Position numbers and translations under genes: made by a program | The notes under the pieces: generated by a model | The model's database searches: none | What the model was told of the DNA's origin: nothing | The model's input: only the letters and a program-made list of their open reading frames with translations | Assembly (NCBI GenBank): GCA_049975265.1 | Contig: JBNGDF010000013.1 | Coordinates: 1 to 17,550, forward strand | From: Fidelibacterota bacterium | GTDB taxonomy: Bacteria; Fidelibacterota; UBA2242 | DNA: 17,550 bases | Reading direction: 5' to 3' | Shown: piece after piece, positions 1 through 17,550 of the stretch | Layout of the letters: every line of letters starts with the position of its first letter | Numbering within the stretch: the stretch's first letter is position 1

Positions 1-177
1 TAAATGACTGTTATTACAATATATTAAGTACTTTCTCAGGAAGCCCTAATTAGTAGCGCATAATCGACTATGGGTAAATGACTATTATAATTCCTGTAAC
101 CTGTGTACAAACCAGATAGAATTATCCTATCGTATCCTTGAAATCAATAAATAGCGGCATCCGGCTGTTACCGATAA

Positions 178-1050: not shown

Positions 1051-1052
1051 TG

Positions 1053-1277
1053 CTACTCCTGCAGGTCTTCCTCTGAATACTCTCCGCCCTTTTCAACCAG
1101 CACTTTGACCCGTTTCTCCAAAGCCGCCAGCTGCTTTTGGCACTCACCGGACAACTCCATCGCTTCCTCAAAGAGCGCGATGGATTTTTCCAGTTCCGGT
1201 TCACTGGACTCCAGCTGCGCCAAAATATCTTCCAGCCGTTTCAAAGAACTTTCCAGTGAAACACTCTTCTTTGGCAT
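1053..1277 (-). CDS. xseB: Exodeoxyribonuclease VII small subunit
   Basis: 74 aa (LESSLKRLEDILAQLE...LEKSIALFEEAMELSGECQKQLAALEKRV), directly downstream of xseA. AAAGGAG RBS. Confidence 0.95.
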   Translation of the reverse strand: MPKKSVSLESSLKRLEDILAQLESSEPELEKSIALFEEAMELSGECQKQLAALEKRVKVLVEKGGEYSEEDLQE

Positions 1278-1299
1278 ACATTTCTCCTTTTACTTCAGG

Positions 1300-2496
1300 T
1301 CAATCCACAGATGTGACTTCCGCATGAAAATCACCGTCCGACATTTCGACGCTGATATTCTTACCGGGAGCCACTTCAGAGACCGACCGGATCACCTTTT
1401 TTCCGGTGTCAGTATACACGATGGCATAACCGCGCTTCAAAATCTCTTTCGGATTCAGGGCACGCAGCGTACTGCGGTAATTTTCCAGGCGCAATTGTGT
1501 CTGATGGATGCGATGCAGGACGGCTATATTGATCTGCCGCTGAATCTCCAGCAAACTACGTCGGTAATCCCGCACGATCTTTTCCGGATTGTATTGGACG
1601 ATGCGCGCGTAGAGATGATCCAGATACTGCATTTTCTGATTTAGTAAATTCCGGATAATGTGACTAAATCGCTCCCGGTAGTGTTGGATTTTCTGCTCAA
1701 TCGCTTCTCTGTCAGGAACCGCTAGTTCAGCCGCGGCGGAGGGTGTCGGTGCCCGAAAGTCAGCCGCAAAATCTGACAGGGTAAAATCCACCTCGTGACC
1801 CACCGCACTGATAATCGGCAGATCGGAAGCCGCTACCGCCCGTACAACCTTTTCTTCGTTAAAAGCCCAGAGGTCTTCGATTGATCCGCCGCCGCGTCCA
1901 ATGATGATCAGATCGACATTTTTCAGCCGGTTAAATACCTGAATGCCTGCAATAATCGTATCGGCAGCCTGTTCGCCCTGCACCAGAGCGGGAAAAACGA
2001 GAATCTCCACCGCGGGATTCCGCCGCCCGCTGATCTCAATGATATCACGGATTGCGGCTCCGGTAATGCTGGTAACGACACCGATCCGTTTTGGAAAGTG
2101 TGGTATCGGCTTTTTTCGCTCCTCCGCAAAAAGCCCCTCCTTGTCCAGTTTCTGTTTTAATGCCTCAAACGCCATGAAGAGGCTGCCGAGTCCCGCCGCA
2201 CGCACCGACCTGACATTGATCTGATACTGGGATTGAGCCGGATAGGTGATAATTTCTCCGTAGACGATCACCCGCATTCCCGACGACAGATGAAACGGAA
2301 TGGTCGCGGCAATGTTGCGCCATAGCACGCAATGGATCAGCGCCTTTTCGTCCTTTAGTGAAAAATAGACATGACCGATCCGGCTGACCGAATAGTTGGA
2401 GATTTCGCCTTCCACCCAAACCGCCGGGAGAAACTGTTCAATCACCCGCTTCACTTCCCGGGAAATTTCAGAAACGCTGTATATTTTTTCTTCCAT
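1300..2496 (-). CDS. xseA: Exodeoxyribonuclease VII large subunit
   Basis: N-terminal OB fold (VWVEGEISN..GHVYFSLKD) plus IGVVTS..GAAIRD, RGGGSIEDLWAFNEE, SAVGHEVDFTLSDFAADFRAPTPSAAAE and ILKRGYA motifs. Confidence 0.97.
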   Translation of the reverse strand: MEEKIYSVSEISREVKRVIEQFLPAVWVEGEISNYSVSRIGHVYFSLKDEKALIHCVLWRNIAATIPFHLSSGMRVIVYGEIITYPAQSQYQINVRSVRAAGLGSLFMAFEALKQKLDKEGLFAEERKKPIPHFPKRIGVVTSITGAAIRDIIEISGRRNPAVEILVFPALVQGEQAADTIIAGIQVFNRLKNVDLIIIGRGGGSIEDLWAFNEEKVVRAVAASDLPIISAVGHEVDFTLSDFAADFRAPTPSAAAELAVPDREAIEQKIQHYRERFSHIIRNLLNQKMQYLDHLYARIVQYNPEKIVRDYRRSLLEIQRQINIAVLHRIHQTQLRLENYRSTLRALNPKEILKRGYAIVYTDTGKKVIRSVSEVAPGKNISVEMSDGDFHAEVTSVD

Positions 2497-2498
2497 TG

Positions 2499-2535
2499 AA
2501 AAAGAGTGGTGACGACCATTCCGCCCTCACCACTC
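2499..2535 (-). terminator. Putative intrinsic terminator between the bS22-like gene and xseA
   Basis: Minus strand GAGTGGTGA-N14-TCACCACTC (perfect 9-bp stem, arms 2527-2535 and 2504-2512) followed by TTTTT. Confidence 0.7.
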
Positions 2536-2557
2536 CCCAGTTAATTGCAGTGTTACC

Positions 2558-2653
2558 TTATTTGCCTTTTTTCTTGTGACGGTCTCTTCTTAACCGTTTC
2601 TTGCGCTTGTGTGTTGCAATCTTCCGCTTTTTTCGTTTTTTACCACAGGGCAT
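2558..2653 (-). CDS. Small basic 30S ribosomal protein bS22-like (AURKAIP1/COX24, mS38-related family)
   Basis: Translated by hand: MPCGKKRKKRKIATHKRKKRLRRDRHKKKGK* (31 aa). AAGGAG RBS about 9 nt upstream of ATG. Matches the recalled Bacteroidota bS22 pattern MP.GKKRK..K.ATHKRKKR.R..RHKKK. Too short for the ORF track. Confidence 0.9.
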   Translation of the reverse strand: MPCGKKRKKRKIATHKRKKRLRRDRHKKKGK

Positions 2654-2680
2654 ATTGACAATCTCCTTAGTCGAATCTCA

Positions 2681-2974
2681 TTACAAATTCAGGTTATAGC
2701 GCTGGTTAATGCTCTCTTTTAACAGTTTGGACGGTTTAAATACCGGTACAATCCTCTCGGGCAGGTGAATCTCTTCTCCGGTGCCCGGATTCCGTGCCTT
2801 CTTGGGTTTGCGGACTTTCAGACTGAAACTGCCGAAACCACGAAACTCCACCCGCTCACCACGCTGAAGCGAATCGGTGATCGTTGCCAAAAAGCCATCA
2901 ATAACGGCTTCGGTATCAACCTTCGTCAATCCGGTCGCACGTGATACAACGTCTACGATATCAGCTTTTGTCAC
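2681..2974 (-). CDS. HU/IHF family DNA-binding protein (IHF-beta-like)
   Basis: MTKADIV...GERVEFRGFGSF...ARNPGTGE...PVFKPSK. Start reassigned to GTG at 2974, because AAGGAGGT abuts the TTG at 2980 but lies 6 nt before the GTG. The RBS overlaps the sppA stop. Confidence 0.93.
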   Translation of the reverse strand: MTKADIVDVVSRATGLTKVDTEAVIDGFLATITDSLQRGERVEFRGFGSFSLKVRKPKKARNPGTGEEIHLPERIVPVFKPSKLLKESINQRYNLNL

Positions 2975-2986
2975 AGTCAAACCTCC

Positions 2987-3859
2987 TTATCTCCACAGAT
3001 AATTGAGAGTTGGAATGGGCGCAAACAGCGAAAACAGCTCATCAATCCCGGTAAACAGCAGGTCAAATAGCGTTTTTGACTTTTTCTGCGGAAAAACCAG
3101 TTTCGGTCTTCCATCAATCCCGGTCAGCTTCCCAATCATCATTACCGCATCCTCAAAGGTTCCCAGTGTATCAATTAATCCATACTCCAACGCCTGTGAA
3201 CCAGTAAATATACGTCCGTCAGCAATTTTTAACAATTTCTTTTTATCAATTTTGCGTTCCAGAGCAACCGCATTAACAAATTGATTATAAATATCTTGGA
3301 TAACTGTTTCCAGCTGGGCTTCATCTTCAGTGGTAAATTCCCGATAGGGTGAACCGACATCTTTATACTCACCACTTTTGATCGTTTCTACGGATAAACC
3401 GATTTTCGCAAGCAGTTCCACAGCCACCGGAAAATCCACGATCACACCAATACTACCGGTCACACTCGCCGGATTCGCTACGATTTCCGAAGCCCCCAGG
3501 GCTGCATAATAGCCTCCGGATGCGCCGACCGAAGCGATTGCCGCCACCACCGGTTTGCCCGCATCTCTGAAGCGCTTCACCTCCCGGTACAACTCCTGAA
3601 AAGCAGCCGAGCCGCCACCTGGCGAATCGATACGCAGAATCATTCCCTTAATGTTTGAATTCCGACGCTGCTCATTGATCTGAGTGGCAATCTTCTCCGC
3701 CGAGCCGATGACACCTTTGATATCAATAACGACGACATCACCCCGCGATAGTCCGGACGATTGCTGTCGGGACCAATTGACACTAGTGAAGGAACCGATA
3801 ATGATAATGCCAACAATTATCAGTACAACAATAGTTATATTGCGGTCCGATTTTTTCAA
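2987..3859 (-). CDS. sppA: Signal peptide peptidase SppA, short (36K) type, peptidase S49
   Basis: N-terminal TM helix; RIDSPGG, ASGGYY, TGSIGV, KSGEYKD, ADGRIFTG and GLIDTLG motifs. TTG start is somewhat uncertain. Confidence 0.93.
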   Translation of the reverse strand: MKKSDRNITIVVLIIVGIIIIGSFTSVNWSRQQSSGLSRGDVVVIDIKGVIGSAEKIATQINEQRRNSNIKGMILRIDSPGGGSAAFQELYREVKRFRDAGKPVVAAIASVGASGGYYAALGASEIVANPASVTGSIGVIVDFPVAVELLAKIGLSVETIKSGEYKDVGSPYREFTTEDEAQLETVIQDIYNQFVNAVALERKIDKKKLLKIADGRIFTGSQALEYGLIDTLGTFEDAVMMIGKLTGIDGRPKLVFPQKKSKTLFDLLFTGIDELFSLFAPIPTLNYLWR

Positions 3860-3865
3860 AATGGC

Positions 3866-5659
3866 TTAGCTTCCGGTGGATTTATAGATGACGATTTTCT
3901 GCCCCGGATAGATGAATCTTCGCCCGTACAGATTATTCCAGGATCGAACCCGGCTGAGTCCTACACCGTAGGCATCGGCAATTTCACTGAGGGTCTCGCC
4001 CCTTTTGACCACGTGAATGATTTTCGTCATCCCGGAAGGAGTAGAAGAATACTGAACTGTTTGGGACTTTTTTCCCGGAATCTTCAAACGCTGCCCCGGA
4101 TAGATATATCGCTTTCCGTAAAGATCGTTGAGCGAGCGGATTTTACTGACACCTACACCGTAACGCTCGCCAATTTCGCTGAGGGTTTCTCCTTTTCGAA
4201 CAACATGAGTAATCATATCCTGATCAGAAGATGCACTGGGAGCGGCGTAGTAATTACTGGTGGGAATCCGCAGAACCTGCCCAACTTTGATCTGATTTTT
4301 ATTGCGAATATTGTTGGCGGCAATCAGAGCCGATACACTGGTACCGTATTTCCGGGCGATATACGAGAGGGTCTGCCCTCTGCGCACACGATGAGTTGTC
4401 CATTGCGGTTTGGAATCTACCGAAGGCAATTCAGCCAATTTTTCTGCCAGCCCCGCGCCTTTCCCCACCGGCACTCTGAGGACGTAATTTTCCACATCGG
4501 GCGGCGTTATCCAGCGCCGTAATTCGGGATTGTATTCCTTTAAAACCGAGGACGAAATACCGCTGACCCGGGCAATGTCTTCAAATTCATAACAGCCGTT
4601 GATAATGACTTCATCCCATTGCCAGGTCTCTTTCGGATTGTTTTCGAATCCGTACTTCGCCGGATTCAGTGCAATGGTCATTCCCGCCATCAGCGTGGGG
4701 ATATAATTCCGCGTCTGCTTCGGCAGCGAGCGCAATTTCCAGTAATCCCGGGTGCCTTCCCGGCGAATCGCCCGCCAGACACGCAGCTCGCCGGTGTTAT
4801 AGGCAGCCAATGCCAGAAACCAGTCATCGAATTCTTCATACAGCTTCTTCAAATATTTAGCAGCCGCGTAAGTGGATTTTATCGGATCGCGACGCTCATC
4901 AATCCACCAGTTCCGTTTCAAACCATACAGGGCACCGGTGGAGGCGATAAACTGCCATTGACCGGCGGCGTGGGCATAGGAGTAGGCAATCGGGTTATAA
5001 CCGCTTTCAATCAGAGCCAGATAAAAAATCTCTTCCGGCAAGCCATAGTCCCTCAAAATGGGCATCATATGCGCTTTATACAATCCGGCATTATTCAACC
5101 ACTCCTGAAATCGATCATGTTCACGGGTCTGAAAATACTCAATAATTCTCTGAATCTGGCGGGAACTGACCAGCGGAAAATGTCCGGGACGGTCATCCAC
5201 AATGATCAACGTATCATGTCCAATAGCAACGGTATCCAGGATGGTTTCCATTAAATCATCCTTTACCAGCGCAATGCCATAGGTTCCGGAATCTCCATCG
5301 ATATAATTAAAATTTTCCTGATAATCGGAGGTTATTTTTTCATAAAAACGGCTGAAATCATCCTCCTGCAACAACGTCAGCGTATCCAGTTCACTGATTT
5401 CAGCCATGATCTCAAAACAGCGATCAAAACAATATTTGACCTCGGCGGTATCCTTAAAATGAGCGGCAATCAGGGCATCCATATAGAAGGTTTTTGCTTC
5501 GGCAAACATCAGATCGAAGAGTTCCGGTCGGTTATTTTCCTGATCAGTCCCGATTCCGTAAGTATCGATGCTCGTCGAGTCTTCCATATCCCGGGCAATC
5601 GTTCCGCTGAATAATATTACTATCGTGAATGTCAGTGAAATGTATTTTTTTAGTATCAT
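3866..5659 (-). CDS. mltD: MltD-like lytic murein transglycosylase with three C-terminal LysM domains
   Basis: Signal-peptide-like N-terminus; SLT motifs ALIESGY, AAGQWQF, DERRDP, LAAYNTG and LPKQTRNYIP; three LysM repeats. Confidence 0.88.
   Translation of the reverse strand: MILKKYISLTFTIVILFSGTIARDMEDSTSIDTYGIGTDQENNRPELFDLMFAEAKTFYMDALIAAHFKDTAEVKYCFDRCFEIMAEISELDTLTLLQEDDFSRFYEKITSDYQENFNYIDGDSGTYGIALVKDDLMETILDTVAIGHDTLIIVDDRPGHFPLVSSRQIQRIIEYFQTREHDRFQEWLNNAGLYKAHMMPILRDYGLPEEIFYLALIESGYNPIAYSYAHAAGQWQFIASTGALYGLKRNWWIDERRDPIKSTYAAAKYLKKLYEEFDDWFLALAAYNTGELRVWRAIRREGTRDYWKLRSLPKQTRNYIPTLMAGMTIALNPAKYGFENNPKETWQWDEVIINGCYEFEDIARVSGISSSVLKEYNPELRRWITPPDVENYVLRVPVGKGAGLAEKLAELPSVDSKPQWTTHRVRRGQTLSYIARKYGTSVSALIAANNIRNKNQIKVGQVLRIPTSNYYAAPSASSDQDMITHVVRKGETLSEIGERYGVGVSKIRSLNDLYGKRYIYPGQRLKIPGKKSQTVQYSSTPSGMTKIIHVVKRGETLSEIADAYGVGLSRVRSWNNLYGRRFIYPGQKIVIYKSTGS
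3887..4393 (-). repeat. Three 129-nt LysM-coding repeats (4265-4393, 4079-4207, 3887-4015)
   Basis: H.V..G.TLS.I...YG pattern three times. Repeats 2 and 3 share 28/43 residues (hand count). Confidence 0.9.
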
Positions 5660-5695
5660 AATCTTTCTTTTATACTATTTAATTTTTCAGGTCGA

Positions 5696-5724
5696 AACTT
5701 ATATTGAACAGATCACAATATCAA
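5696..5724 (-). promoter_or_regulatory. Putative sigma70 promoter for the mltD-sppA-HU-bS22 cluster
   Basis: TTGATA (5724-5719), 17-nt spacer, TAAGTT (5701-5696), in the 70-nt intergenic gap. Confidence 0.5.
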
Positions 5725-5729
5725 GGTGT

Positions 5730-6203
5730 TTATATTGAAATCCGGCGTATCTTCTCAATGATTTCACTCGTGGACTGACCCGGTACAAGGGGAATAACTT
5801 TAACTTCCGGAACAATATCAAAACCGACAATCTCCTCTTTGCGATAATCGCCTCCTTTTACCAGAACGTCCGGCTGGATTTCCCGCAGAATTCCGGCGGG
5901 AGTCTCTTCGTCAAAAAAGGTTACCCAGTCCACTGCCTGAAGCGCCGCTATCAGGCGCGCCCGGTCATTTTCAGATACAATCGGTCGCTGCGCCCCTTTG
6001 ATCCTCCGGACCGAAGCATCCGTATTCAAGGCAACAATCAAAACATCACCAAAAGATTTCGCCTGTTCCAATAGATCAATATGACCGGCATGCAAAAGGT
6101 CAAAACAGCCGTTGGTGAAGACAATCCGCTGTCCGTGTCTCCGGGCAATCTGCACCCGCTTTCCTATTTCCGTCCGGTTGACTATTTTCTTATCCGTAAG
6201 CAT
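5730..6203 (-). CDS. rfaE2: D-glycero-beta-D-manno-heptose 1-phosphate adenylyltransferase (stand-alone HldE domain II / RfaE2-like)
   Basis: VFTNGCFDLLHAGH (HxGH), LNTDASVRRIKG..RPI, PDVLVKGGDY and STSEII motifs. Start moved to ATG 6203, which follows GGAGG and overlaps the DUF2851 end by 14 nt. Confidence 0.88.
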   Translation of the reverse strand: MLTDKKIVNRTEIGKRVQIARRHGQRIVFTNGCFDLLHAGHIDLLEQAKSFGDVLIVALNTDASVRRIKGAQRPIVSENDRARLIAALQAVDWVTFFDEETPAGILREIQPDVLVKGGDYRKEEIVGFDIVPEVKVIPLVPGQSTSEIIEKIRRISI

Positions 6204-7542
6204 ATTCCTCCAACGGGCATAACTTACACAGCTTGAGATCACAAAAACCGTGATGGAGTTCAATTGCGCCCTGGATTAAATAATTTTTCGTAAAAAAACG
6301 CTCCGGCATCCGCTTATACACCTCCCAGCGCCTGAGGAACGCCGGAATCTCACCGCGGGGAATCTGGTAATTCCAGGCAACGATCCTGTTCATCAGTCCG
6401 ATGTCACTGGCAAGTGCCGCCAGCGTCCAACTGAACGGCAACAACAGATTGCTGAGCAGGTCCATGCTGCGACCGGTTCCCAGCAGGACTTTTCCCCGAC
6501 AGCCGCTCAGCAGCGGATGATTGCGCCACATCCCCGCCGGCTGTTGAAAATATTCCTTTACCCAATTCAGTAGCGTCCTAAAATCCCGATTCGTCATGAC
6601 AAGGTTGGACCAGAGCTGCGCCGGTTCACCAGGATAAAATTTGTGAAGAATTTGTGCCAGTGCCACCAATCGCCGGGTGGGAAAATTCGGTGGTCGGATG
6701 CCGGCAAAATGCCAGTTCAAATGGAGTGGCGTGCATTTATACTTTCGGGCGATTGTGTGCCAGATTTTCTTGATTCCGGAAAAATACTCAGGATTTCCCT
6801 GTAAATAGCTCCTATTCGTATCTTCGAGAAAACCCGCGGTTCCCAGGAGCAGCGCCTCAAGTGTAATGATCCGCTTCGACTCGCCTGTTTCATTCAGGAT
6901 GGAATAGACTTTTTGTATTCTCAGATGATCGGCTAAGGTCCTGAAGGACTTCCTGTTCTGACTGTAGCCCAGAACATCAAATATCAATCGGTAAAAGGTG
7001 TGATGAGCAGACCACTTCAGAATCGCTTTCTTTACAGCGGCACTCTTGCGCTGGAAACGAATACCGGCGTATTGCTGCAGGCAACTTTTTACACCTTCTG
7101 CATCCAGCCGGACCCAGGATTGACAGGGCAAACACAACACTTTATCCGCGGCACCGGCAGATATTATCAATACAGGAATGCGCTTACCCTCCTGCGTGCA
7201 GATTTCCGCATCACCCGTTACATTCATGACGACATGCAACACTACGCTATTATAGACCGGATCGACATCGTGCTTATGCCGGTACCAGTCGAAATTATCA
7301 ATATGGATTTCCACATCTCCCTCATGCAGAACACCATCGATAAAAATTTGCGCATCCCTAAAATCCGGTCCCTCAAAGATATTTCGCTGCCCGGGATCGA
7401 CAATGCTGATGGAGCGTCCGTCGACAGTAGCCAGATTATGCTGGGGAAATCGCTGGTATAGCCAGGCTTTGTACAGCGACTTCTCCAGTGGTTTATAGCC
7501 GGGTCGTTTTTCCGAAATGGTATTTAATTGACAATTGTACAT
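6190..7542 (-). CDS. DUF2851 family protein
   Basis: PGQRN..EGPDF, GDVEIH....DW..H.H..DP.YNSVVLHVV, LGYSQN, EALLLGTAGFL, W.F..IRPPNFPTRRL and QG.IELH..FC....C..CP match my recollection of DUF2851. Start position is uncertain. Confidence 0.85.
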   Translation of the reverse strand: MYNCQLNTISEKRPGYKPLEKSLYKAWLYQRFPQHNLATVDGRSISIVDPGQRNIFEGPDFRDAQIFIDGVLHEGDVEIHIDNFDWYRHKHDVDPVYNSVVLHVVMNVTGDAEICTQEGKRIPVLIISAGAADKVLCLPCQSWVRLDAEGVKSCLQQYAGIRFQRKSAAVKKAILKWSAHHTFYRLIFDVLGYSQNRKSFRTLADHLRIQKVYSILNETGESKRIITLEALLLGTAGFLEDTNRSYLQGNPEYFSGIKKIWHTIARKYKCTPLHLNWHFAGIRPPNFPTRRLVALAQILHKFYPGEPAQLWSNLVMTNRDFRTLLNWVKEYFQQPAGMWRNHPLLSGCRGKVLLGTGRSMDLLSNLLLPFSWTLAALASDIGLMNRIVAWNYQIPRGEIPAFLRRWEVYKRMPERFFTKNYLIQGAIELHHGFCDLKLCKLCPLEEYAYG

Positions 7543-7655
7543 GCCGTTACTTTACTAATTCATCCTCGTATGCAACCACAAATCCGCTAATTGTCATTAG
7601 AATTTAACCGCCGTAACGGTTTAATTCCACTGTAAAATTCCAGAAAGCAGATCAC

Positions 7656-8351
7656 TTAGATGGATTTTTCGTAGCGGTCTTTGTATCCGATCATCAGATT
7701 GCGAACATGCTGCAGGCACGTTTCGATTGTTTCGTACTGCTCGGTATAGACCGGTTTTTCAATGACAACCTTCACGACACCGGGGTAAATTCTGAACGAT
7801 TTATTGGGTATGCAATACCGTGATCCCATCAGGATTACCGGAATCAGCGGCAGTTTATGGGAGTGCGCCAACCGAAAGGCACCCTTTTTAAATGGCAGAA
7901 TCCGACCGCTGCTGCTACGGGTTCCTTCGGGGCTGACAATGATCGAGATGCTTCGCCGGATCAGTTTACCGGACACTTTTTCAATTGCCTGAAGCGCCTT
8001 TTGCCGGTTTTTTCGGTCAATCGGGATGTGCCCGCCCCACTTTAAGACCCAGCCGAAAAAGGGAAGCCGGAACAGCTCCTTTTTTGCCATAAATCGAACC
8101 GGGACTCTGGTCGCAGCGACAGCAACAGGGATATCCAATGCGCTTTCATGATTGATCACCAGAACAGAGGGTTCTCCCTTCGGCAGATGATTGCGTCCGC
8201 CGACCTCCAGACGGACACCTATCAGTACCAGAGCGACTCTGGACCAGATGATCATTATCAGGCTGTGTATTGGCAAAAATATCAGGGCAAATACTACACC
8301 GATGATCAGCCAAAGGAAAATCAGCGCAATTTTTACTGCATTGATAATCAT
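7656..8351 (-). CDS. plsC: 1-acyl-sn-glycerol-3-phosphate acyltransferase (PlsC family)
   Basis: NHESALD (HX4D), FMAKKELF, IPIDR, PEGTRS and FKKGAF motifs. Start set at ATG 8351 to avoid overlap with the aldolase (track start 8423). Confidence 0.88.
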   Translation of the reverse strand: MIINAVKIALIFLWLIIGVVFALIFLPIHSLIMIIWSRVALVLIGVRLEVGGRNHLPKGEPSVLVINHESALDIPVAVAATRVPVRFMAKKELFRLPFFGWVLKWGGHIPIDRKNRQKALQAIEKVSGKLIRRSISIIVSPEGTRSSSGRILPFKKGAFRLAHSHKLPLIPVILMGSRYCIPNKSFRIYPGVVKVVIEKPVYTEQYETIETCLQHVRNLMIGYKDRYEKSI

Positions 8352-8364
8352 TACCAATCTCGTA

Positions 8365-9012
8365 TTAACGGAGCAGTCTACGAACCGGCTCGCTGACCGG
8401 ATAAGCCGCCAACAGTTCATCAACTTCAGAGCGGGACAGGGATTTCACCCTGCCAAGTGAGCGGGCGATCGCCAGAATTTTGAAAACGTGCTCCGCCCTT
8501 TCCAATTTATAATAGGCATCCCAGAGGTCTGCACCACAGCTGACGACGCCATGCCGTTCCAGAAGCAGAACATCGGCTCTTTTGGCATATTCTCCCACAA
8601 TGTCGGCAAACGCCTGAGTCGAGGGAGTCCGGTAGGGCACGAGCGGAATTTTCCCCAGTGTCACCAGGACTTCCGGAAAAAGCGGTTCTTCCAACCCTTC
8701 ACCGAGCATGGCAAAAGCGGTGGCATAGGGTGAATGAACATGAATAATTCCGCCTGCATCCGCCCGGACGGCATAGATTGCCCGGTGCATTTTGTATTCC
8801 GAAGATGGCTGAAGCGGTCCCTCAATCTTATTCCCACGAATGGTAATCAGGCTCTCCGCATCCAGACGACCCTTGGAAATACCGGTCGGCGTAATCAGAA
8901 ACGCCCTGGTATCAATGCGGGCGCTGATGTTACCGTCATTGGCTGCCACAAATCCCTGCCGGCAGACCTCCTTACCAATCGCACAAATTGTCTCTGCCAG
9001 TTTCTTTATCAT
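8365..9012 (-). CDS. Class II aldolase/adducin family protein (FucA/MtnB-like fold)
   Basis: DGNISAR, ITPTG, PSSE, HVHS and LLERHG retain the catalytic Glu and three metal-binding His. Start overlaps the serS stop (TGATG). Confidence 0.9.
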   Translation of the reverse strand: MIKKLAETICAIGKEVCRQGFVAANDGNISARIDTRAFLITPTGISKGRLDAESLITIRGNKIEGPLQPSSEYKMHRAIYAVRADAGGIIHVHSPYATAFAMLGEGLEEPLFPEVLVTLGKIPLVPYRTPSTQAFADIVGEYAKRADVLLLERHGVVSCGADLWDAYYKLERAEHVFKILAIARSLGRVKSLSRSEVDELLAAYPVSEPVRRLLR

Positions 9013-10289
9013 CAGGATTGAGTCTTTATCTGGGCAAAGCCGGTATAGGGTTGTAAAATTTTGGGAATGTTGATAGTGCCTTCATCCGTCTGATAGGTTT
9101 CCAGAAAAGCAATCATCAATCGCGGTGTCGCCACACCGGAGCCGTTCAGCGTATGCACAAACGCCACCTTACCGTCCGAAGCCCGGCGATAACGGATGTT
9201 TGCCCGGCGTGCCTGAAAATCCTCGAAATTGCTGACACTGGAAACCTCAAAATATTTTTCCGAACCCGGTGCCCAGACCTCGATGTCATAGCATTTGGCA
9301 GCTGCAAAACTTAAATCCCCGGAACACAGAGCAATAATCCGATAATGCAGATTCAGCGCCTGCAATACCTCTTCCGCCTCGTTTAACAACTCCTCGTGTG
9401 CCCGATACGAATTTTCGGGTTGCGTAATGCGAACCAGTTCGACCTTATTAAACTGATGAACCCGCGACAGACCGCGTGTATCTTTCCCGTATGACCCGGC
9501 TTCCCGTCGAAAACAGGCGGAATACGCCGTGTAAAGGAAGGGCAGTTGGTTCTCGGGAATGATCTCATCGCGATGGAGATTTGTAAGCGGCACCTCCGAA
9601 GTAGGAATCAGAAACAGATCATCCACATCATCCCGGTACATATCCTCTTCCAGTTTCGGGAGCTGCCCGGTACCAAAGGTCGCCTCGCGATTGGTCAGAA
9701 AGGGTGGAAAAATCTCCTGATATCCGTGTTTTTCCGTATGCAAATCCAACATAAAGTTGATAAATGCCCGCTCCAGCCGGGCGCCGGCATTTTTATAAAC
9801 CGGAAACCCGCTGCCACTGAGCTTGGCACCACGCTGAAAATCGAGTATATTGAGATTTTCACCCAGCTCCAGATGATCTTTCAGCGGATAGTCATAACGT
9901 CGTTGTTCACCCCACTTACGGACGATCTCATTCTCCTCTGCGCCCGCTCCGATTTTCACCGACTCATGTGGCAGATTGGGCAGAGTGATTAAAATCTGAT
10001 GCAACGCCTCGTCGATTGACTTGATCTGATCATCCAGCTCCTTAATCTTCTGAGCCACCTGTTTCATTTCAGCAATTCTATCGTCGGCGGACTGACCGGA
10101 TTTTTTCAGGCGGGCAATTTCCGCAGAGACCCGGTTCCGCAGCGCTTTCAGCTCATCTCCCTGCGATACGGCGGCTCGGCGCTGCCGATCCAGCTCCAGG
10201 ATCTCCTCAACCTTACCGGCACTGTTTTTCGCCCTCAAACCACGAATAAAAAAGTCAGGATCGCGTCGAATTTCCTTAATATCCAGCAC
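9012..10289 (-). CDS. serS: Serine--tRNA ligase
   Basis: MLDIK..R N-terminal coiled coil; LIPTSEVPL, CFRREAGSYGKDTRGL.RVHQFNKVE, YDIEVW and HTLNGSG motifs. GTG start with GGGAG RBS. Confidence 0.98.
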   Translation of the reverse strand: MLDIKEIRRDPDFFIRGLRAKNSAGKVEEILELDRQRRAAVSQGDELKALRNRVSAEIARLKKSGQSADDRIAEMKQVAQKIKELDDQIKSIDEALHQILITLPNLPHESVKIGAGAEENEIVRKWGEQRRYDYPLKDHLELGENLNILDFQRGAKLSGSGFPVYKNAGARLERAFINFMLDLHTEKHGYQEIFPPFLTNREATFGTGQLPKLEEDMYRDDVDDLFLIPTSEVPLTNLHRDEIIPENQLPFLYTAYSACFRREAGSYGKDTRGLSRVHQFNKVELVRITQPENSYRAHEELLNEAEEVLQALNLHYRIIALCSGDLSFAAAKCYDIEVWAPGSEKYFEVSSVSNFEDFQARRANIRYRRASDGKVAFVHTLNGSGVATPRLMIAFLETYQTDEGTINIPKILQPYTGFAQIKTQS

Positions 10290-10399
10290 TATTGTCTCCC
10301 GTTCAAATTCACTTCGCTCAATTTTCCCTAATGGCGTAAATTAAGCATATTTTCAGAGGAATTGTAGTGCTAAAATGCATGCCGGCAGTGGAATGCGGC

Positions 10400-12946
10400 T
10401 TAGTTGTAGGCAAATTTGTGCTTTTTCCGCAATCCGATCAGCAGCGTCTGGATGATAATTTTCAGGTCCAGTATAACGGACATATTTTCGATATAGTAGA
10501 GATCGTAGCGTAATTTTTCACGTACGTCATCGATACTTTCGTCGTATTTATACTTAATTTGTGCCCAGCCGGTGATGCCCGGCTTGACAATCAGCCGGCG
10601 GGAATAAAACGGAATCGACTTTTCCAGTTCGTTGACGAAATGCAGGCGCTCCGGGCGAGGACCGACAATGCTCATGTCGCCAATCAGCACATTAAAAAAC
10701 TGCGGAATCTCATCCAGACCGGTCTTCCGTAAGAATGAGCCGACGCGGGTCATCCGGGGGTCCTCTTTCTCCGCCCATTTTGGTCCGGTCAGCTCCTCGG
10801 CATTGTGCTGCATGGAGCGGAATTTGATCAGCTCAAATTCCTGCCGGTTTTTCCCCACCCGCTTCTGTTTATAAAACACCGGACCTTTGGAATCGATTTT
10901 AATAATCAAGGCAATGATCAGCCAAAAGGGCAAAAAAACCACCAAAACTATCAGCGAAATGACGATGTCGATAATGCGTTTTAATAACCACTCCCAGGTT
11001 TTCATATTCGATTTAAAAAAGCGGATCAGCGAGACACCGTAGATGTGACTGGTTTTAAATCCGGACATCAGGTTGTAGAAATCGGGCAGCAGCTTTACGG
11101 AAATGTTATACTGGCTAAAGAGGGCGATCAGGTCCATGATTGTATCGCTGTCGGCATCGTCCAGAGCAATGATGACCTCTTTGATCTTTTTCTGTTTGAT
11201 GAATTTCGGGATATCCTCGAAACCGCCCAGAATCGGTATACCGTTGATCAGTTTGCCGACATTGCCGTTGGCACGCTCATCGATATACCCCACCAGCTTG
11301 AATTTCAGTTCCGGTACATATTTTATCTTAGTCGCCACATTGATCGCCTGGCTCGACGCTCCGATGATCAACGTCGGTCTGGGTCGAAAGCCAAGCAGGT
11401 CATTATTTTTCAGAATGCCGATTAAAATCAACCGCCCGGCACCGAGACCGATAAAGAGCAGGATTCCGTAGGTTATCAGCACTCGCCGGGCAACAATGAT
11501 GGGAAAATAAAATTCGTAGGTAATAAAAAAGATGAACAGCGTGCCCACAAACACGATTTTAAAAACGGTAAAGAGCTCGTCAATCCGGGAGGTATCCCAT
11601 TCGATTTTGTAGAGATCGTTGGCGCCCAGCAATACCACCCAGAAGACGATCGTCCAGGAATTTTGCAGAATCAGTTCGCCTGCCGGGAACGAACGCTCCA
11701 GAAAGGGTACGATCCGCCAGTAATATGTCAGGAAAAATGCCAGCGTGATAAAAATAATATCACTGCAAATAAAAAGAAGTGACTGGATAAATTCGGAGGT
11801 ATCAAAGGGAATAAATTTGCTCTCCTGTTTGCCATTGCCATTGGTAATACCATTGGTTTTACCGTTGCCATTGCCATTTTCACCATTGGAAACAACTATA
11901 ATATTCTGCTCTATCTCAACATAACCCAGCCGGCGAATCAGGAGCGCCAATAAGACCGCTCCCACAATCAATACCGTCAGCAGTGCCTGGGTGTTCAGAT
12001 ATAAGAAGGAGAATCCCATAATGCCCGCCATGGCACTGAACAAATAAATGATTTTGACGGCATTTTTATGGGAAAATCCGATGCTCATCAGACGATGGTG
12101 AATATGCTCCTTATCCGCCATGAAGGGATGCATCCGCTTGCTGGCTCTCCGGAAAAAAGCGATGAGAGTATCCAGAGCCGGAACGATCAGGACGGTCAAT
12201 GGGACAATCAGGTTCAGAGTATTGGAGCGACCAACCCTGCCAATCTCCAGGGCGATCACAGCCGTGGCAAATCCCAGAAACAACGAACCGGCATCTCCCA
12301 TAAAGATCGATGCCGGATGATAATTATAACGGAGAAATCCCAAATTTGCCAGTATCAGCAGAAGATTTACCAGAGCGATGAGCGTTCTGCCCGACGACAT
12401 TGCGATAACGGTAAAGGTGGCGAAGATAATCGTCGACACTCCCGCCGCCAGACCGTCCAGACCATCCAGCAGATTCATGGTGTTGGTAATGAAAACAATC
12501 CACAACAGCGTAAACACAAAGGAAAAACCGCCCAGATAGATATCGCCGATCACCGGCAGATAGATCGTATCGAAGTGAAAACCGCCGATAACCACCATAA
12601 TGGCGGCGATGATCTGGCAGTAAAATTTGGTGGAGAATTTCAATCCCTTCAGATCGTCATATAAACCCACCAGTGTAATAAAAGTACAGGCAATGCCTAA
12701 AACGTAGTAGTGCGAAGGCACCTTCCCGGCAACGATGGGAACCAAAAGGACGGAGATGCCGACACCGATTAAAACGGACAATACAATAGCGACACCGCCA
12801 AGATAGGGAACGAAGATTTTGTGGACTTTACGATCGTTGGGAATATCGCCGATTTGGTATTTGATCGCAACTTTCCGGGCAAACCTGGTCAGCAGCAGTG
12901 AACTGCCCAGGGTTATGATCGCAATGATGAACAATCGCAAATACAA
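10400..12946 (-). CDS. Fusion of WecA/TagO (MraY-like polytopic) phosphoglycosyl transferase and WbaP/WcaJ-type large monotopic phosphoglycosyl transferase
   Basis: aa ~1-345: RKVH, GLYDD, NTMNLLDGLDGLA, FMGDAGS, HIHH. aa ~354-373: Asn/Gly linker. aa ~385-848: four TM helices, Rossmann-like TLIIGA domain, KRIID, KFRSM, DPR.TRVG.FLRKTGLDEIPQ..NV..GDMS.VGPRPER, KPGITGWAQ and DLYYI motifs. TTG start with GAGGG RBS. Confidence 0.92.
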   Translation of the reverse strand: MYLRLFIIAIITLGSSLLLTRFARKVAIKYQIGDIPNDRKVHKIFVPYLGGVAIVLSVLIGVGISVLLVPIVAGKVPSHYYVLGIACTFITLVGLYDDLKGLKFSTKFYCQIIAAIMVVIGGFHFDTIYLPVIGDIYLGGFSFVFTLLWIVFITNTMNLLDGLDGLAAGVSTIIFATFTVIAMSSGRTLIALVNLLLILANLGFLRYNYHPASIFMGDAGSLFLGFATAVIALEIGRVGRSNTLNLIVPLTVLIVPALDTLIAFFRRASKRMHPFMADKEHIHHRLMSIGFSHKNAVKIIYLFSAMAGIMGFSFLYLNTQALLTVLIVGAVLLALLIRRLGYVEIEQNIIVVSNGENGNGNGKTNGITNGNGKQESKFIPFDTSEFIQSLLFICSDIIFITLAFFLTYYWRIVPFLERSFPAGELILQNSWTIVFWVVLLGANDLYKIEWDTSRIDELFTVFKIVFVGTLFIFFITYEFYFPIIVARRVLITYGILLFIGLGAGRLILIGILKNNDLLGFRPRPTLIIGASSQAINVATKIKYVPELKFKLVGYIDERANGNVGKLINGIPILGGFEDIPKFIKQKKIKEVIIALDDADSDTIMDLIALFSQYNISVKLLPDFYNLMSGFKTSHIYGVSLIRFFKSNMKTWEWLLKRIIDIVISLIVLVVFLPFWLIIALIIKIDSKGPVFYKQKRVGKNRQEFELIKFRSMQHNAEELTGPKWAEKEDPRMTRVGSFLRKTGLDEIPQFFNVLIGDMSIVGPRPERLHFVNELEKSIPFYSRRLIVKPGITGWAQIKYKYDESIDDVREKLRYDLYYIENMSVILDLKIIIQTLLIGLRKKHKFAYN
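11828..11887 (-). repeat. Low-complexity Asn-Gly linker (NGENGNGNGKTNGITNGNGK) made of degenerate AATGGN units
   Basis: Repeated (g/a)ccatt units on the plus strand, located between the two PGT halves. Confidence 0.8.
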
Positions 12947-13107
12947 ATATATCCCTCTCGTGTTTGATCTACTTCAGCACCGCTGTTTTAAACTTCGCCC
13001 GCCAAGTAAAACTTGCTGATCGGACTATTTTTGTGAGTATGAGTTTAGTTTTTTATGGTACGTAGCAACTGTTTGTGACTGACACCCTCGACATTTCAAC
13101 TGGTTAA

Positions 13108-13136
13108 AATGTAAAAACAAAATAGCAACATGGCAA
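13108..13136 (-). promoter_or_regulatory. Putative sigma70 promoter for the dual-PGT fusion gene
   Basis: TTGCCA (13136-13131), 17-nt spacer, TACATT (13113-13108), about 160 nt upstream of the TTG start. Confidence 0.55.
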
Positions 13137-13176
13137 GGATAAAGTGCACTAATTCCCCTATAACCGCAATTCACCT

Positions 13177-13824
13177 TTATTTATCGAGAATCTTATCTCT
13201 GCTGGGTAATATTACTCTAATAACTGTTTTGAGAAATATTTTTATATCTCTAACCAAATTCCAATTGTCCGCGTATTGCCTTTCCAACTCAAATTTATGA
13301 GGCATGATAACATCCCGATAATATTGATGTGGATTCGCCGAACATGCCAATAATTCGTCCTCATGATGATAATACAGAGAACCAGCTCCCGTTATTCCCG
13401 GTCGCATTGAGTAATATTCAATAATCTCTTCAGGGTTAAAGGATTCCATCATCTGTTCCCGAATCAGAGGACGGGGACCAACAAAACTCATATCACCTAA
13501 TAAAACATTAATTAGCTGTGGAATTTCATTAATTTTGGTCTTTCTTAAAAATTTGCCAAACTTAAATGGTCGTTCATCATCGGTTGTCGTAATATAACCG
13601 GCTTTTTCAGAACCCTTTGGCATGGTTGTAAACTTATAGCAAAAAAAATCTTGTCCCAAATAGCCTACTCGTTTTTGATGATAAAAAACATCTTCACCTA
13701 AAATTTTCAACCGAATTGCTACCCAGATAAAAACAGGAGTAGTAAGAAGCAGTAAAATGATTGCCAGAATTTTGTCTGCCGTATATTTTATTAATAGTGA
13801 AAATTTAGGATTTCTTTGCACCAT
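13177..13824 (-). CDS. Small monotopic sugar transferase (PglC-like, Bac_transf family) with variant active site
   Basis: One hydrophobic segment; FYHQKRVG, KFTTM, GKFLRKTKINEIPQLINVLLGDMSFVGPRP and RPGITG motifs. Overlaps the upstream aminotransferase by 20 nt. Confidence 0.9.
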   Translation of the reverse strand: MVQRNPKFSLLIKYTADKILAIILLLLTTPVFIWVAIRLKILGEDVFYHQKRVGYLGQDFFCYKFTTMPKGSEKAGYITTTDDERPFKFGKFLRKTKINEIPQLINVLLGDMSFVGPRPLIREQMMESFNPEEIIEYYSMRPGITGAGSLYYHHEDELLACSANPHQYYRDVIMPHKFELERQYADNWNLVRDIKIFLKTVIRVILPSRDKILDK

Positions 13825-14971
13825 CCGTCAGTACCTTTAACACCATATCGCATTGTGCTTGTGTAAGATTCACCGAACAAGGAATGTTCAGTGTTTGTTC
13901 GAACAATCGAAAAGCATTTTCAATCTGATAGTGCTGACAATTCTTATAAGGTTTTTGTAAATGATTTAAATACCAAACCGGGCGAGTTTGGATATTATGT
14001 TTGGATAAATACTGCATCAGCGTTTCCCGATCCATTCCATACACTTTAGAATCAATTTTCAAACAATAGAACCAATAATTTGATTGGCCATATTCAGGAA
14101 CATCAGCTAAAGATAAACCTGGGATAGATTCAATATTTGTCTTATAGTATTTCCAATTTTTTCTCTTGATGTCAATATATTCCCGAAGTTGTTCCAATTG
14201 AGCTACACCCAATGCGGCTTGGATATTTGTCAATCGGTAGTTATATCCGATTTCATTATGAATGTAACGGACCGGATCATCTTTTGCCTGAGTTGTCAAG
14301 TACCTGGCTTTTTCGGCATATTTACTGTTGTTGGTCACAATCATGCCACCACCACCACTGGTAATGATTTTATTTCCGTTAAATGAATAACAACCTATCT
14401 CTCCAACTGTCCCGGTATAACAATTTGCTAAATTTCCGTGTGTATAATAAGCACCGATGCTTTCAGCAGCGTCTTCAATAACAGCAATATTTCTGAAACG
14501 ACATTTATTTAATAATTCAAAAGCATTCACCGGATTTCCAAAAATATGAACCAACATGATAGCAGCAATCCGCTTACCGGTATGTTTATTGTATGTATGT
14601 CCGTTTTTAAAAACCGTTTCATTTTCAATAAAAGCTATCGTTTTTTCAGGATCTATATTGTAATAATCATCGCAATCCATGAATACCGGTTTTGCATTTA
14701 GATAACTGACTGAATTGATCGAAGAAATAAAGGTAAGTGTCGGGACAATCACTTCATCTCCGGAGTGAACGCCAACCAATTGTAATGCGATCTGCAACGC
14801 TGCCGTTCCGTTGACACAAGCAATCGCGTACCGCGCACCTGTCAATTTGCATATATCTTCCTCAAACCGATCGACATATTTCCCGGCTGAAGACACCCAT
14901 TCGGTATCAATACATTCTTTTACATATCGCCATTCATTACCTCTGATCGTGGGGACAGAAAGGGGAATCAT
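13805..14971 (-). CDS. LegC-type PLP-dependent nucleotide-sugar aminotransferase (DegT/DnrJ/EryC1/StrS family)
   Basis: IPLSVP...GNEW.YVKEC.DT.WVSSAGKYVDRFE, NGTAAL, EDAAES.G, SFNGNKIIT.GGGG (PLP Lys) and GYNYRLTNIQAALG motifs. Confidence 0.92.
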   Translation of the reverse strand: MIPLSVPTIRGNEWRYVKECIDTEWVSSAGKYVDRFEEDICKLTGARYAIACVNGTAALQIALQLVGVHSGDEVIVPTLTFISSINSVSYLNAKPVFMDCDDYYNIDPEKTIAFIENETVFKNGHTYNKHTGKRIAAIMLVHIFGNPVNAFELLNKCRFRNIAVIEDAAESIGAYYTHGNLANCYTGTVGEIGCYSFNGNKIITSGGGGMIVTNNSKYAEKARYLTTQAKDDPVRYIHNEIGYNYRLTNIQAALGVAQLEQLREYIDIKRKNWKYYKTNIESIPGLSLADVPEYGQSNYWFYCLKIDSKVYGMDRETLMQYLSKHNIQTRPVWYLNHLQKPYKNCQHYQIENAFRLFEQTLNIPCSVNLTQAQCDMVLKVLTDGAKKS

Positions 14972-14981
14972 AATTTATTTC

Positions 14982-15953
14982 CTAACTATTACGATATTTT
15001 TCACTCTCAGAATCACGGATAATCCCCTGGGAGACTGCAGTGTAAATTGCCCTTATTCCATCAGGTACAGTTTTAGTAATTCTGAAATTCAGCTCGTTTT
15101 TTATTTTTGAAAAATCGACACGATAATCCCGTGGGTCTTCATCTTTATGAACATATTCAACCTGCATTTTAGGCACAATATTTTTAATTTCCTCGGAGAG
15201 CATCTTTTTCTGATAATTTTCACCTGTGTCACCAACACCAAACACGTTATGATCCACTTTACTAGGCTCCGACTCCAAGACCAGTATGCACGCCCGTGCC
15301 AAATCCTCGACATGACAGTATGGTCTCCAAAATTGTTCTCCGTAAATCAGCAATTTTTTTCCTAAGGCAACGTCACGGGTGAATTCATTGACAGTAAGAT
15401 CAAATCTCATTCGGGGTGATAACCCGTAAACCGTCGCAAAGCGTAACGAAGTGGGTACAAAATCCGATCTGGTTTGGCTCTTCAAAAGATAGGTCTCAAA
15501 CTCAACTTTCAATTCTGCATAAAGAGAAACAGGGCGGAGTGGAGACTCCTCATTAATAAATCCATCCCCCTCCATCTTGCCATAATTGCTACACGTTGAT
15601 GCAAAAATAAACCGCTTTACCTTTTTCGTTCGATGGCAAATATCAAATAAGTTTTTTGACGCAGTTAAATTAACTTCCCGTGCTAAATCAGGTTCTTTTG
15701 CACAAGCCGGATCACCTACAATCGCCGCCAAATGCACAACCGCATCCGCGCCATCAACAGCTTGGATAACATCAGATTCATCGCGGATATCACCTTTGAT
15801 AAACTCAAAATTTGAATGATCATAAATACCCAATAACGACTCTCCGCCAAACCTTAATACATCAAAAACTCTGACCTCGTAGCCTTTTTGTAACAATTGG
15901 CGGCTTAACACCGAACCTATATATCCTGCTCCTCCTGTTACTAATACTTTCAA
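14982..15953 (-). CDS. NAD-dependent nucleotide-sugar epimerase/dehydratase (extended SDR)
   Basis: TGGAGYIG, HLAAIVG, STCSNYG and YAELK (YxxxK) motifs. TTG start immediately after the upstream TGA, with GGAGG RBS. Confidence 0.92.
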   Translation of the reverse strand: MKVLVTGGAGYIGSVLSRQLLQKGYEVRVFDVLRFGGESLLGIYDHSNFEFIKGDIRDESDVIQAVDGADAVVHLAAIVGDPACAKEPDLAREVNLTASKNLFDICHRTKKVKRFIFASTCSNYGKMEGDGFINEESPLRPVSLYAELKVEFETYLLKSQTRSDFVPTSLRFATVYGLSPRMRFDLTVNEFTRDVALGKKLLIYGEQFWRPYCHVEDLARACILVLESEPSKVDHNVFGVGDTGENYQKKMLSEEIKNIVPKMQVEYVHKDEDPRDYRVDFSKIKNELNFRITKTVPDGIRAIYTAVSQGIIRDSESEKYRNS

Positions 15954-16622
15954 TCATACCTCCTGCTTAATCACTTCTTTAGCAGGGACTCCTACAACAG
16001 TTGTATTTTCCCTGACATTTTTGATAACTACGGCACCAGCGCCAACGACAGAATTCGATCCGATTTTTAAATATTGTAATATTGTCGCCCCGGTCCCAAT
16101 CAGACAGCCATCTTCAATTTCAACTCCACCGGATAAATTAACACCAGGATTGACAATACAATAATCAGCAATCCGCACATCATGACTAATATTGCAGGCA
16201 CGATTAATACAATTAAATGATCCAATTCGAATGTTTGTCGTGAAAATATTCCCGGCGCAGATAATATTTCCTATTCCCAACGAGACACCTCTCATATCAG
16301 GAACAACTCCGGGGTGAATAATATTAGGAAATTCAATATTACTTTTCAGCCCCATCAATTCACAATGGATTTTTTTTACAGTTCGGGAATTGCCGATCGC
16401 AATAACTAAATTCAGGTGTTCATCTTTCCTCTTTTTCAGAATGCTCTCCGGAAAAATTTCATACCCCATCATCGTATTTCCGATTTCTGCATCATCGTTG
16501 CTGATAAATCCAAGAATGTTCCATCGCCTCTCGGTTATATTTATATCCTCAATCAAATAGGCGATCTCCCTGGCATGTCCGCCTGCTCCAATGATAAACA
16601 AGTTTTTAATTATTTCGTCCAT
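15954..16622 (-). CDS. NeuD/PglD-family sugar acetyltransferase (hexapeptide repeat)
   Basis: IIGAGGHAREI N-domain, AIGN, NIIHP, SHD (catalytic His), left-handed beta-helix repeats and VVGVPAK. Confidence 0.92.
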   Translation of the reverse strand: MDEIIKNLFIIGAGGHAREIAYLIEDINITERRWNILGFISNDDAEIGNTMMGYEIFPESILKKRKDEHLNLVIAIGNSRTVKKIHCELMGLKSNIEFPNIIHPGVVPDMRGVSLGIGNIICAGNIFTTNIRIGSFNCINRACNISHDVRIADYCIVNPGVNLSGGVEIEDGCLIGTGATILQYLKIGSNSVVGAGAVVIKNVRENTTVVGVPAKEVIKQEV

Positions 16623-16633
16623 TAAATTAAATT

Positions 16634-17550
16634 TTACCCCGCTATTTTAATTATAAACTGTAAAATATTCAAAGAAATCTTATCTCTATCAAATTCCTTT
16701 TCTGCTAACATGCGCGCATTTTTTCCCATCTTTACGCGTAAAGCAGGGTCATTATATAATCTATGAATATTTTTTTCAAATTGACCCATATCCCAAAGGT
16801 CTGTTCCTAGTCCGGCATTATAATCTTCCACGACCCTCCTTTGCCAGCCAGAATAATTCAGCAGAATTGGTTTACCAGCACTCAACGAATCAAAGAATTT
16901 ATTGGCTGAATTGTTCTCGAGAATCGGATAGTTATTAAATAGTACTAGCGCTACATCAGCTATAGCAACATAATAAGGTAATTTCATTTTTGATACAGGT
17001 GGAATTATTTTGACATTGCTAATGTTTTCACGACGAATTCGATTCAACAATTCAGGTCGTTCACTTCCATCTCCGATAATTAAAAAAATAATATCTGAAT
17101 ATTGCTCGATTTTTTTTGATATGTCAACAATAAAATTTAGTCCGTTTACATGACCTATAGTACCAAAGTGAATCAGAACAAATTTACCTTCCAAGTCTAA
17201 TCTGTGACGAAGTTCCTGTGGATTTATCGCCGGATTAAAAAGGGTCAGATCGGCGCTATTTGGAGCAACGATAATTGGCGTATCTGTATTTGTATATTTC
17301 AAAATATTCTTCTTCATGCCAGGCGACAATGCCACAATGCCCGCTGCATTCCGATATATACATTTTTCCAACCCGTATAAAAAGGCGACTAATACTTTGC
17401 TTTTTAGAATACCCATTTCAACCGGGATTCGCGGCCATTCGTCCCGGACTTCAAAAATAAACGGTATGTGTTTTATCATCTTACAAAATACTGCCGGTAT
17501 TCCGATTGTCAAAGGTGTACTGGTTGCATATACAATGTCTGCTTTTTCCA
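16634..17550 (-). CDS. Glycosyltransferase family 4 (WbuB-like), 5' end outside the window
   Basis: Frame stays open to the window edge (EKADIVYATSTPLTIG...). FEVRDEWP, GDGSER and NKFFDSLSAGKPI motifs. Confidence 0.9.
   Translation of the reverse strand, partial: EKADIVYATSTPLTIGIPAVFCKMIKHIPFIFEVRDEWPRIPVEMGILKSKVLVAFLYGLEKCIYRNAAGIVALSPGMKKNILKYTNTDTPIIVAPNSADLTLFNPAINPQELRHRLDLEGKFVLIHFGTIGHVNGLNFIVDISKKIEQYSDIIFLIIGDGSERPELLNRIRRENISNVKIIPPVSKMKLPYYVAIADVALVLFNNYPILENNSANKFFDSLSAGKPILLNYSGWQRRVVEDYNAGLGTDLWDMGQFEKNIHRLYNDPALRVKMGKNARMLAEKEFDRDKISLNILQFIIKIAG

Follow-up and report, generated by a model that had tools for sequence, protein, structure and literature searches.

The window analysed here, i.e. 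the whole 17,550-nucleotide stretch comprising positions 1 to 17,550 (forward strand) of contig JBNGDF010000013.1 in assembly GCA_049975265.1, comes from a Fidelibacterota bacterium of the UBA2242 lineage and carries on its reverse strand a single gene for two unrelated glycan-priming enzymes, i.e. a WecA/TagO-type polytopic phosphoglycosyl transferase (PGT) joined to a large monotopic PGT (monoPGT). This is one real fusion gene, and judged by sequence both of its halves look functional. PGTs gate the flow of a scarce carrier, undecaprenyl phosphate (Und-P), into surface glycans. Polytopic PGTs act through a ternary complex and monotopic PGTs by a ping-pong mechanism via a covalent aspartate intermediate, and both release uridine monophosphate (UMP).

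One gene for two phosphoglycosyl transferases

The unbroken open reading frame (ORF) of the original prediction was borne out by an uninterrupted 848-codon frame with a TTG start, a few bases 5' of which lies a purine-rich GAGAGGG. The three Pfam domains expected in one protein all exceeded their cut-offs (PF00953 at residues 83-234, PF13727 at 442-621 and PF02397 at 656-837). The linker junction is crossed in frame by a 1637-base contig of sequencing run X1 (covering 10788-12409), which differs from the window by 24 letters and by one 15-base in-frame insertion inside the Asn/Gly linker and therefore represents another strain. Runs X2, X3 and X7 leave parts of the gene uncovered, and these gaps have no bearing on the question. 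Within the host order, 29 of the 41 other genomes sampled gave a single-frame match across both halves among the matches listed, and contig-cut pieces from four more cross the junction without a stop, i.e. the junction is open in 33/41; the remaining eight gave fragments only or no full match among the matches listed. All three Pfam domains occur together in more than 100 full-length homologues, so that relatives do not always encode two separate genes. An assembly or stop-loss artefact merging two adjacent genes could be suspected, given that the assembly is of the metagenome type and that the X1 comparison rests on contigs, each covering part of the fused gene and none all of it. However, the independent in-frame contig, the open junctions in the order and the three-domain homologues refute this explanation, and we regard its probability as negligible. 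Scans for promoters and terminators were uninformative (9 and 4 sites versus 5.6 and 4.0 in shuffles), and none of 1240 matching plasmid records covered 80 % of the fused protein.

The N-terminal half carries YDD (residues 96-98), NLLDGLDG (158-165), FMGDAG (215-220) and HIHH (281-284) exactly where they had been named. The literature assigns roles in catalysis or donor recognition to GxxDD, NxxNxxDGxDG, FMGD and HIHH (PMC5222938; 10.1101/2023.09.19.558431). This half scores 132.8 bits against PF00953 (cut-off 27), matches MraY (TMt 0.66-0.81) and human GPT in Foldseek, and matches MraY and GPT also at the sequence level. Eleven transmembrane helices are predicted by the structure model (residues 2-340) and ten by a hydropathy scan.

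The C-terminal half contains D745-E746 and P763-R764-P765, likewise as predicted, together with the D660-X12-P673 re-entrant helix, K708/R710, R740 and D815 in alignment to WbaP; the same core residues are listed for PglC and WbaP in PMC12802240. The core matches the PglC fold (Foldseek TMt 0.82), and WbaP is the top Foldseek match of the model. With a score of 439.8 the half belongs to the large monoPGTs (TIGR03025, cut-off 295.55). The nearest specific model is WcaJ, which uses uridine diphosphate (UDP)-glucose (TIGR03023), with 402.6, just under its cut-off of 410.75; a stand-alone large monoPGT orthologue scores 399.3 against the same model. The WbaP model (UDP-galactose, TIGR03022) is far from reached (248.1 versus 403). 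Pfam, the model, Foldseek and the alignments therefore support the identity of both halves and their intact catalytic residues.

An AlphaFold2 monomer model built from 81 intact fusions (pLDDT 80.7, pTM 0.77) lays out the chain as the 11 helices, a disordered linker (pLDDT below 50 at 345-378), four helices (383-514), a Rossmann-like domain that ends in a low-confidence beta-hairpin (632-643, strands 632-634 and 641-643), a kinked helix (650-685) and the core. Among intact fusions the linker is 20-48 aa long. The motif loops of the polytopic half come after odd-numbered helices and are cytoplasmic in the polytopic family, therefore helix 11 should end in the cytoplasm. The first loop of WcaJ is periplasmic (PMC4361858), therefore the start of WcaJ should be cytoplasmic. 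We infer that the chain is back in the cytoplasm where the four-helix bundle begins and that both active sites face the cytoplasm; the topological plausibility claimed for the fusion thus fits the predicted helix count and the family loop orientation. A complex prediction with the two halves as separate chains scored 0.01 and was counted neither for nor against.

Both motif sets are invariant in the 81 aligned intact fusions (38-83 % identity), and across all 115 intact fusions none of the catalytic positions of either half varies more than marginally. In five pairs of intact relatives, with dS no higher than about 1.1, dN/dS was 0.04-0.13 for the polytopic half (except for 0.31 in a single pair of 95 % identity) and 0.02-0.10 for the monoPGT core. 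Pairs including the gene of the window are near saturation but still show a pN well under pS in either half. It is because of this purifying selection that both halves look functional here.

Table 1. Positions of the fused gene, its parts and two flanking genes in the window
Feature	Residues	Position	Strand	Basis
Fused gene, polytopic PGT + large monotopic PGT	848 aa	10400..12946	-	ORF, Pfam, model
WecA/TagO-type polytopic PGT half, 11 predicted helices	1-342	11921..12946	-	PF00953, model, fold matches
GxxDD motif	G94-D98	12653..12667	-	sequence motif
NxxNxxDGxDGLxxG motif	N155-G169	12440..12484	-	invariant in 81 intact fusions
FMGD motif	215-218	12293..12304	-	sequence motif
HIHH motif, WecA-type, implicated in UDP-GlcNAc recognition	281-284	12095..12106	-	sequence; PMC5222938
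Asn/Gly-rich linker, disordered, length-variable, probably cytoplasmic	343-383	11798..11920	-	model, X1 insertion
Four-helix membrane bundle of large monoPGT	384-514	11405..11797	-	model
W450-D451 signature of fused forms	450-451	11594..11599	-	alignment
PF13727 nucleotide-binding domain	515-647	11006..11404	-	PF13727 71.1 bits
monoPGT catalytic core	648-848	10403..11005	-	PF02397 238.5 bits, WbaP alignment, PglC fold
D745-E746 dyad	745-746	10709..10714	-	sequence motif
PRP	763-765	10652..10660	-	sequence motif
serS, conserved downstream landmark		9012..10289	-	Pfam, synteny
Small monoPGT, last gene of upstream low-GC cluster		13177..13824	-	PF02397; GC 0.35

Relatives that lost one active site

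Among 257 distinct full-length fusions, which are the top matches of chosen queries and no census, 115 have both sites, nine are without the polytopic motifs (poly-dead) and 133 without the Asp-Glu dyad (mono-dead), 108 of the latter having Tyr-Lys. Long proteins without PF00953 were left out of these counts (P0140, P0142, P0147, P0208, P0222 and P0230); P0142, P0147 and P0208 are fusions of GT2 to an intact large monoPGT, and P0222 and P0230 contain two PF13727 and two PF02397 stretches each.

In the poly-dead forms, loop A, DD, FMGD and HIHH are gone and 8-10 hydrophobic segments are retained, with pN of 0.14-0.23 versus pS of 0.67-0.80 for the N-halves in six of seven pairs. These forms represent one clade nested inside the fusions of the host order in both half-trees; the fusion of G033 is contig-cut and was classed as poly-dead by its C-half. 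Compensation of the dead half by a stand-alone WecA gave no signal, such a gene being found in 4/6 poly-dead genomes and also beside intact fusions; a stand-alone WecA-type match is missing in the poly-dead genomes G069 (94 % complete) and G135 (77 %).

The mono-dead forms are labelled Caldithrix, Calditrichota or Zixibacteria where labelled, the majority being unlabelled; one carries the label of Caldithrix abyssi, which we take to be a cultured organism. They keep the WecA aspartates, K656, D660, G790 and Y818 in 133/133 and R764 in 112/133, and are without K708, R740, D745 and E746. The model of a Tyr-Lys form (pLDDT 86.8, pTM 0.84) retains the PglC fold (TMt 0.79), and one Tyr-Lys gene on a metagenome contig directly precedes a GT2-PF13727 gene, as at the Ignavibacteria locus. 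In protein P0144, which nests among the intact fusions, the monoPGT core is wholly absent. Many proteins of the family are named after their dead half, a warning for annotators.

Of the original prediction of a two-headed initiator, the intact catalytic residues of both halves are supported for this gene. The outcome that it named as refuting, activity of one half only, is predicted by sequence for many relatives, in both directions. Therefore, two working heads are not what holds the fusion together family-wide.

Regarding the history of the family, the 42 fused C-halves of a quick 57-row tree all lie to the same side of one branch (SH-aLRT 93, unstarred), and a careful 20-row tree supports the same split (92/94, unstarred). 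The rooting depends on two paralogues. The descent of the host order's fusion from the resident stand-alone gene of the phylum was rejected (p-AU 5e-8, 20 rows). In the N-half tree, whose deepest branches are not resolved, the Zixibacteria-type N-halves take a different position. The W450-D451 pair occurs in 95-100 % of each fused state versus 0/37 stand-alone forms, which have a Trp one residue earlier, so that we read the pair as marking a lineage, with a role at an interface no more than a possibility. The simplest reading, short of proof, is one old fusion that was spread by transfer or hidden paralogy.

Proteins with WecA and a PF13727-type module and no monoPGT core were also seen (L135:4132-6204, L136:4206-6086, L138:3334-5160 and L163:4124-6058). 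Their lack of the W-D signature and their separate branching suggest that WecA became attached to the PF13727 module on more than one occasion.

Locus and host genome

Upstream of the fused gene lies a polysaccharide cluster with a GC content of 0.35-0.41 versus 0.46-0.48 in the fused gene itself. It encodes a UDP-sugar dehydrogenase, a dehydratase, an SLBB export protein, Wzz-like and Wzx-like proteins, GT2/GT4 transferases, an acetyltransferase, an epimerase, a LegC-type aminotransferase and the small monoPGT. Downstream follow serS and then housekeeping genes. Across relatives the upstream cluster varies and the serS side is fixed. Of 11 loci examined from the phylum's other orders, nine have a stand-alone large monoPGT (~466 aa) at most two genes away from serS, and no fused match was found outside the host order among the matches listed. 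In the Ignavibacteria-type class, 4/251 genomes harbour the fusion, which occupies the place of the stand-alone gene at three of the four loci, i.e. those resolved by the ORF caller. An unfused wecA just upstream of the large monoPGT was considered and rejected; the upstream ORFs of 370-390 aa have no match to the WecA half.

The host genome (95 % complete) contains three PF00953 genes, i.e. MraY, a WecA-like gene that stands in a separate operon, and the fused gene itself, and outside the host order 24/30 genomes have a single PF00953 match, presumably MraY. PF02397 genes are also three in number in the host genome, and the Asp-Glu dyad is found only in the C-half of the fused gene, the third being a GT2 fusion whose core is gutted. 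The neighbouring small monoPGT has Asn-Glu for the dyad and KFTT for KFRS; Asn-Glu recurs in 10 of the 11 family rows listed (its own included), usually beside epimerase and LegC-type aminotransferase genes, and the protein may be a pseudoenzyme or use a variant mechanism.

A gene for GT2, a four-transmembrane-helix (4TM) segment, PF13727 and a gutted monoPGT is located upstream of accA (L265:3162-5273; G000 C14:59162-61273). In Ignavibacteria-type genomes and L184, this gene is found directly after the large monoPGT or, where present, the fusion, and its product may be a partner that uses the same scaffold. The stand-alone WecA-like gene at L139:2698-3831 (G000 C19:31697-32830) has an FLGD variant. 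In six genomes of the order, the stand-alone WecA-like operon includes DegT, PIG-L, WbqC and an AAA_22 ATPase; the copy in the host genome also has an HD-domain gene (Pfam), with GT4 after.

The housekeeping run of the window (178-10289, reverse strand) is kept in much of the phylum and comprises serS, a class II aldolase (absent in several), an acyltransferase, DUF2851, a cytidylyltransferase, a LysM lytic transglycosylase, an S49 peptidase, HU, exonuclease VII and NAD kinase. The GT4 gene at the right edge of the window (16634-17550, reverse strand; also L264:2509-3003) consists of two overlapping ORFs, one of 164 aa (no Pfam match) and then one of 292 aa, and may be split or frameshifted.

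Proposed mechanism and relation to known systems

We propose that the fused protein is a two-site primer, likely transferring two sugar-1-phosphates, probably N-acetylglucosamine (GlcNAc) and probably glucose, onto Und-P from one shared scaffold that is predicted to be packed, and that this shared body lets either site die; we give this reading an even chance of being right. The N-half would use a ternary complex to transfer an N-acetylhexosamine 1-phosphate, and the C-half would transfer a hexose 1-phosphate by ping-pong through Asp745, both with release of UMP. In WbaP, PF13727 makes most dimer contacts, binds uridine nucleotide and has been suggested to sense UMP allosterically for feedback (PMC10942596). 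The 4TM-PF13727 module would likewise dimerise the fused protein and sense UMP, and the WecA half could thereby share this feedback and be held at the same place in the membrane. The fused gene would provide a variable polysaccharide cluster with a constant primer on its housekeeping side. With a scaffold common to both sites, either chemistry could be dropped while the body is kept: a Marinimicrobia clade would have turned monoPGT-only, and the Calditrichota- and Zixibacteria-labelled forms WecA-only on a dead monoPGT body. The two pathways and shared Und-P pool of the original prediction are compatible with this shared-scaffold reading.

A bolder version, doubtful but worth stating, is that of an evolutionary switchboard, in which WecA docked on the dimerising, UMP-sensing 4TM-PF13727 body of a large monoPGT and lineages swapped the priming chemistry at one locus through the silencing of one site or the other; the Tyr-Lys pseudoenzyme of Calditrichota would bind uridine nucleotide and regulate its WecA half, and the two halves in the window would cross-regulate.

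Several points weigh against the shared-scaffold reading. The substrates of both halves are guessed from family scores, and although the enterobacterial WecA model ECA_wecA (TIGR02380) is the best-scoring one for the N-half, the score of 141.3 is well under the equivalog cut-off of 326.05. Intact motifs do not prove use in vivo, and the fusion may not be needed for a GlcNAc primer, given the separate WecA-like gene of the host genome. The losses are few, i.e. about two or three events (polytopic loss in one clade, monotopic loss once or twice), within a sample drawn from top matches; the seventh poly-dead pair is nearly relaxed (pN 0.46 versus pS 0.63), and W450-D451 may be merely inherited.

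Both halves could instead be simply tethered, i.e. active and independent, priming two glycans without cross-talk, the dead halves being baggage kept for folding or membrane insertion. This would account for a disordered linker of variable length and for dead N-halves that evolve faster than their own C-halves, and the stand-alone large monoPGTs filling the same locus in most relatives mean that the C-half does not need the N-half. Nevertheless, the dead halves are full-length and under purifying selection, the Tyr-Lys replacement and the PRP region persist between sequences about 35-60 % identical, and the whole-chain pTM values of the intact and Tyr-Lys models appear to exceed what is usual for two freely tethered halves; we consider simple tethering rather unlikely. 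Another possibility is that only one half is catalytic in this protein and the other, despite its intact motifs, is already a regulator or substrate-binding module. Both one-sided states do occur in the family, the poly-dead clade nests in the host order's fusions, and the host genome has the separate WecA-like gene, but (nearly) invariant catalytic positions in the 115 intact forms and similarly low dN/dS in both halves make this quite improbable. Redundancy, with both sites making the same Und-PP-sugar for one pathway, predicts the reciprocal loss that is seen, and some monoPGTs use UDP-GlcNAc or UDP-N-acetylgalactosamine (PMC11626204). On the other hand, two truly redundant sites would hardly be kept across whole orders and two phyla, and for the C-half the closest specific model is WcaJ, which is glucose-type, so that we see very little room for this explanation.

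The role of the 4TM-PF13727 module of large monoPGTs is only partly understood, and nature provides a series at the same locus and on one scaffold, i.e. both sites intact, WecA-dead, monoPGT-dead and stand-alone monoPGT, with which one can test whether an enzyme of unrelated structure is regulated by such a module and in what way the two PGT superfamilies replace each other. The fusion architecture itself is not new: the monoPGT sequence-similarity-network survey of O'Toole, Imperiali and Allen (PNAS, 2021) reportedly describes polytopic-monotopic PGT fusions, and the dyad-less forms may already be in it. No description of the fusion or of its reciprocal decay was found in the literature searched, as far as its texts were available and with the text of the 2021 survey outside that search. 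What our sequence comparison adds is the natural series of intact, WecA-dead and monoPGT-dead fusions.

Compared with known systems, the N-half resembles the WecA/TagO polytopic PGTs in its GxxDD, NxxNxxDGxDG, FMGD and HIHH motifs, its 11 predicted helices and its MraY fold (TMt up to 0.81), but the fused gene continues into a complete large monoPGT; MraY of this genome, in contrast, is a separate gene inside the cell-division cluster on contig C3. With large monoPGTs such as Salmonella WbaP (PDB 8T53), E. coli WcaJ and the members of TIGR03025, the C-half shares 4TM, PF13727 and a PglC-type core with DX12P, Asp-Glu dyad and PRP, and its predicted hairpin is likened to the dimer-swap hairpin of WbaP (PMC10942596), whereas the 11-helix polytopic PGT at its N-terminus and the scores under the WcaJ and WbaP equivalog cut-offs set it apart. 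The bifunctional monoPGTs (BiPGTs), as described in PMC11626204, likewise have an extra catalytic domain joined to a monoPGT core. However, their partner is an acetyltransferase or glycosyltransferase acting in an adjacent step, whereas the partner in the fused gene belongs to the same reaction class and acts on the same lipid with a different fold.

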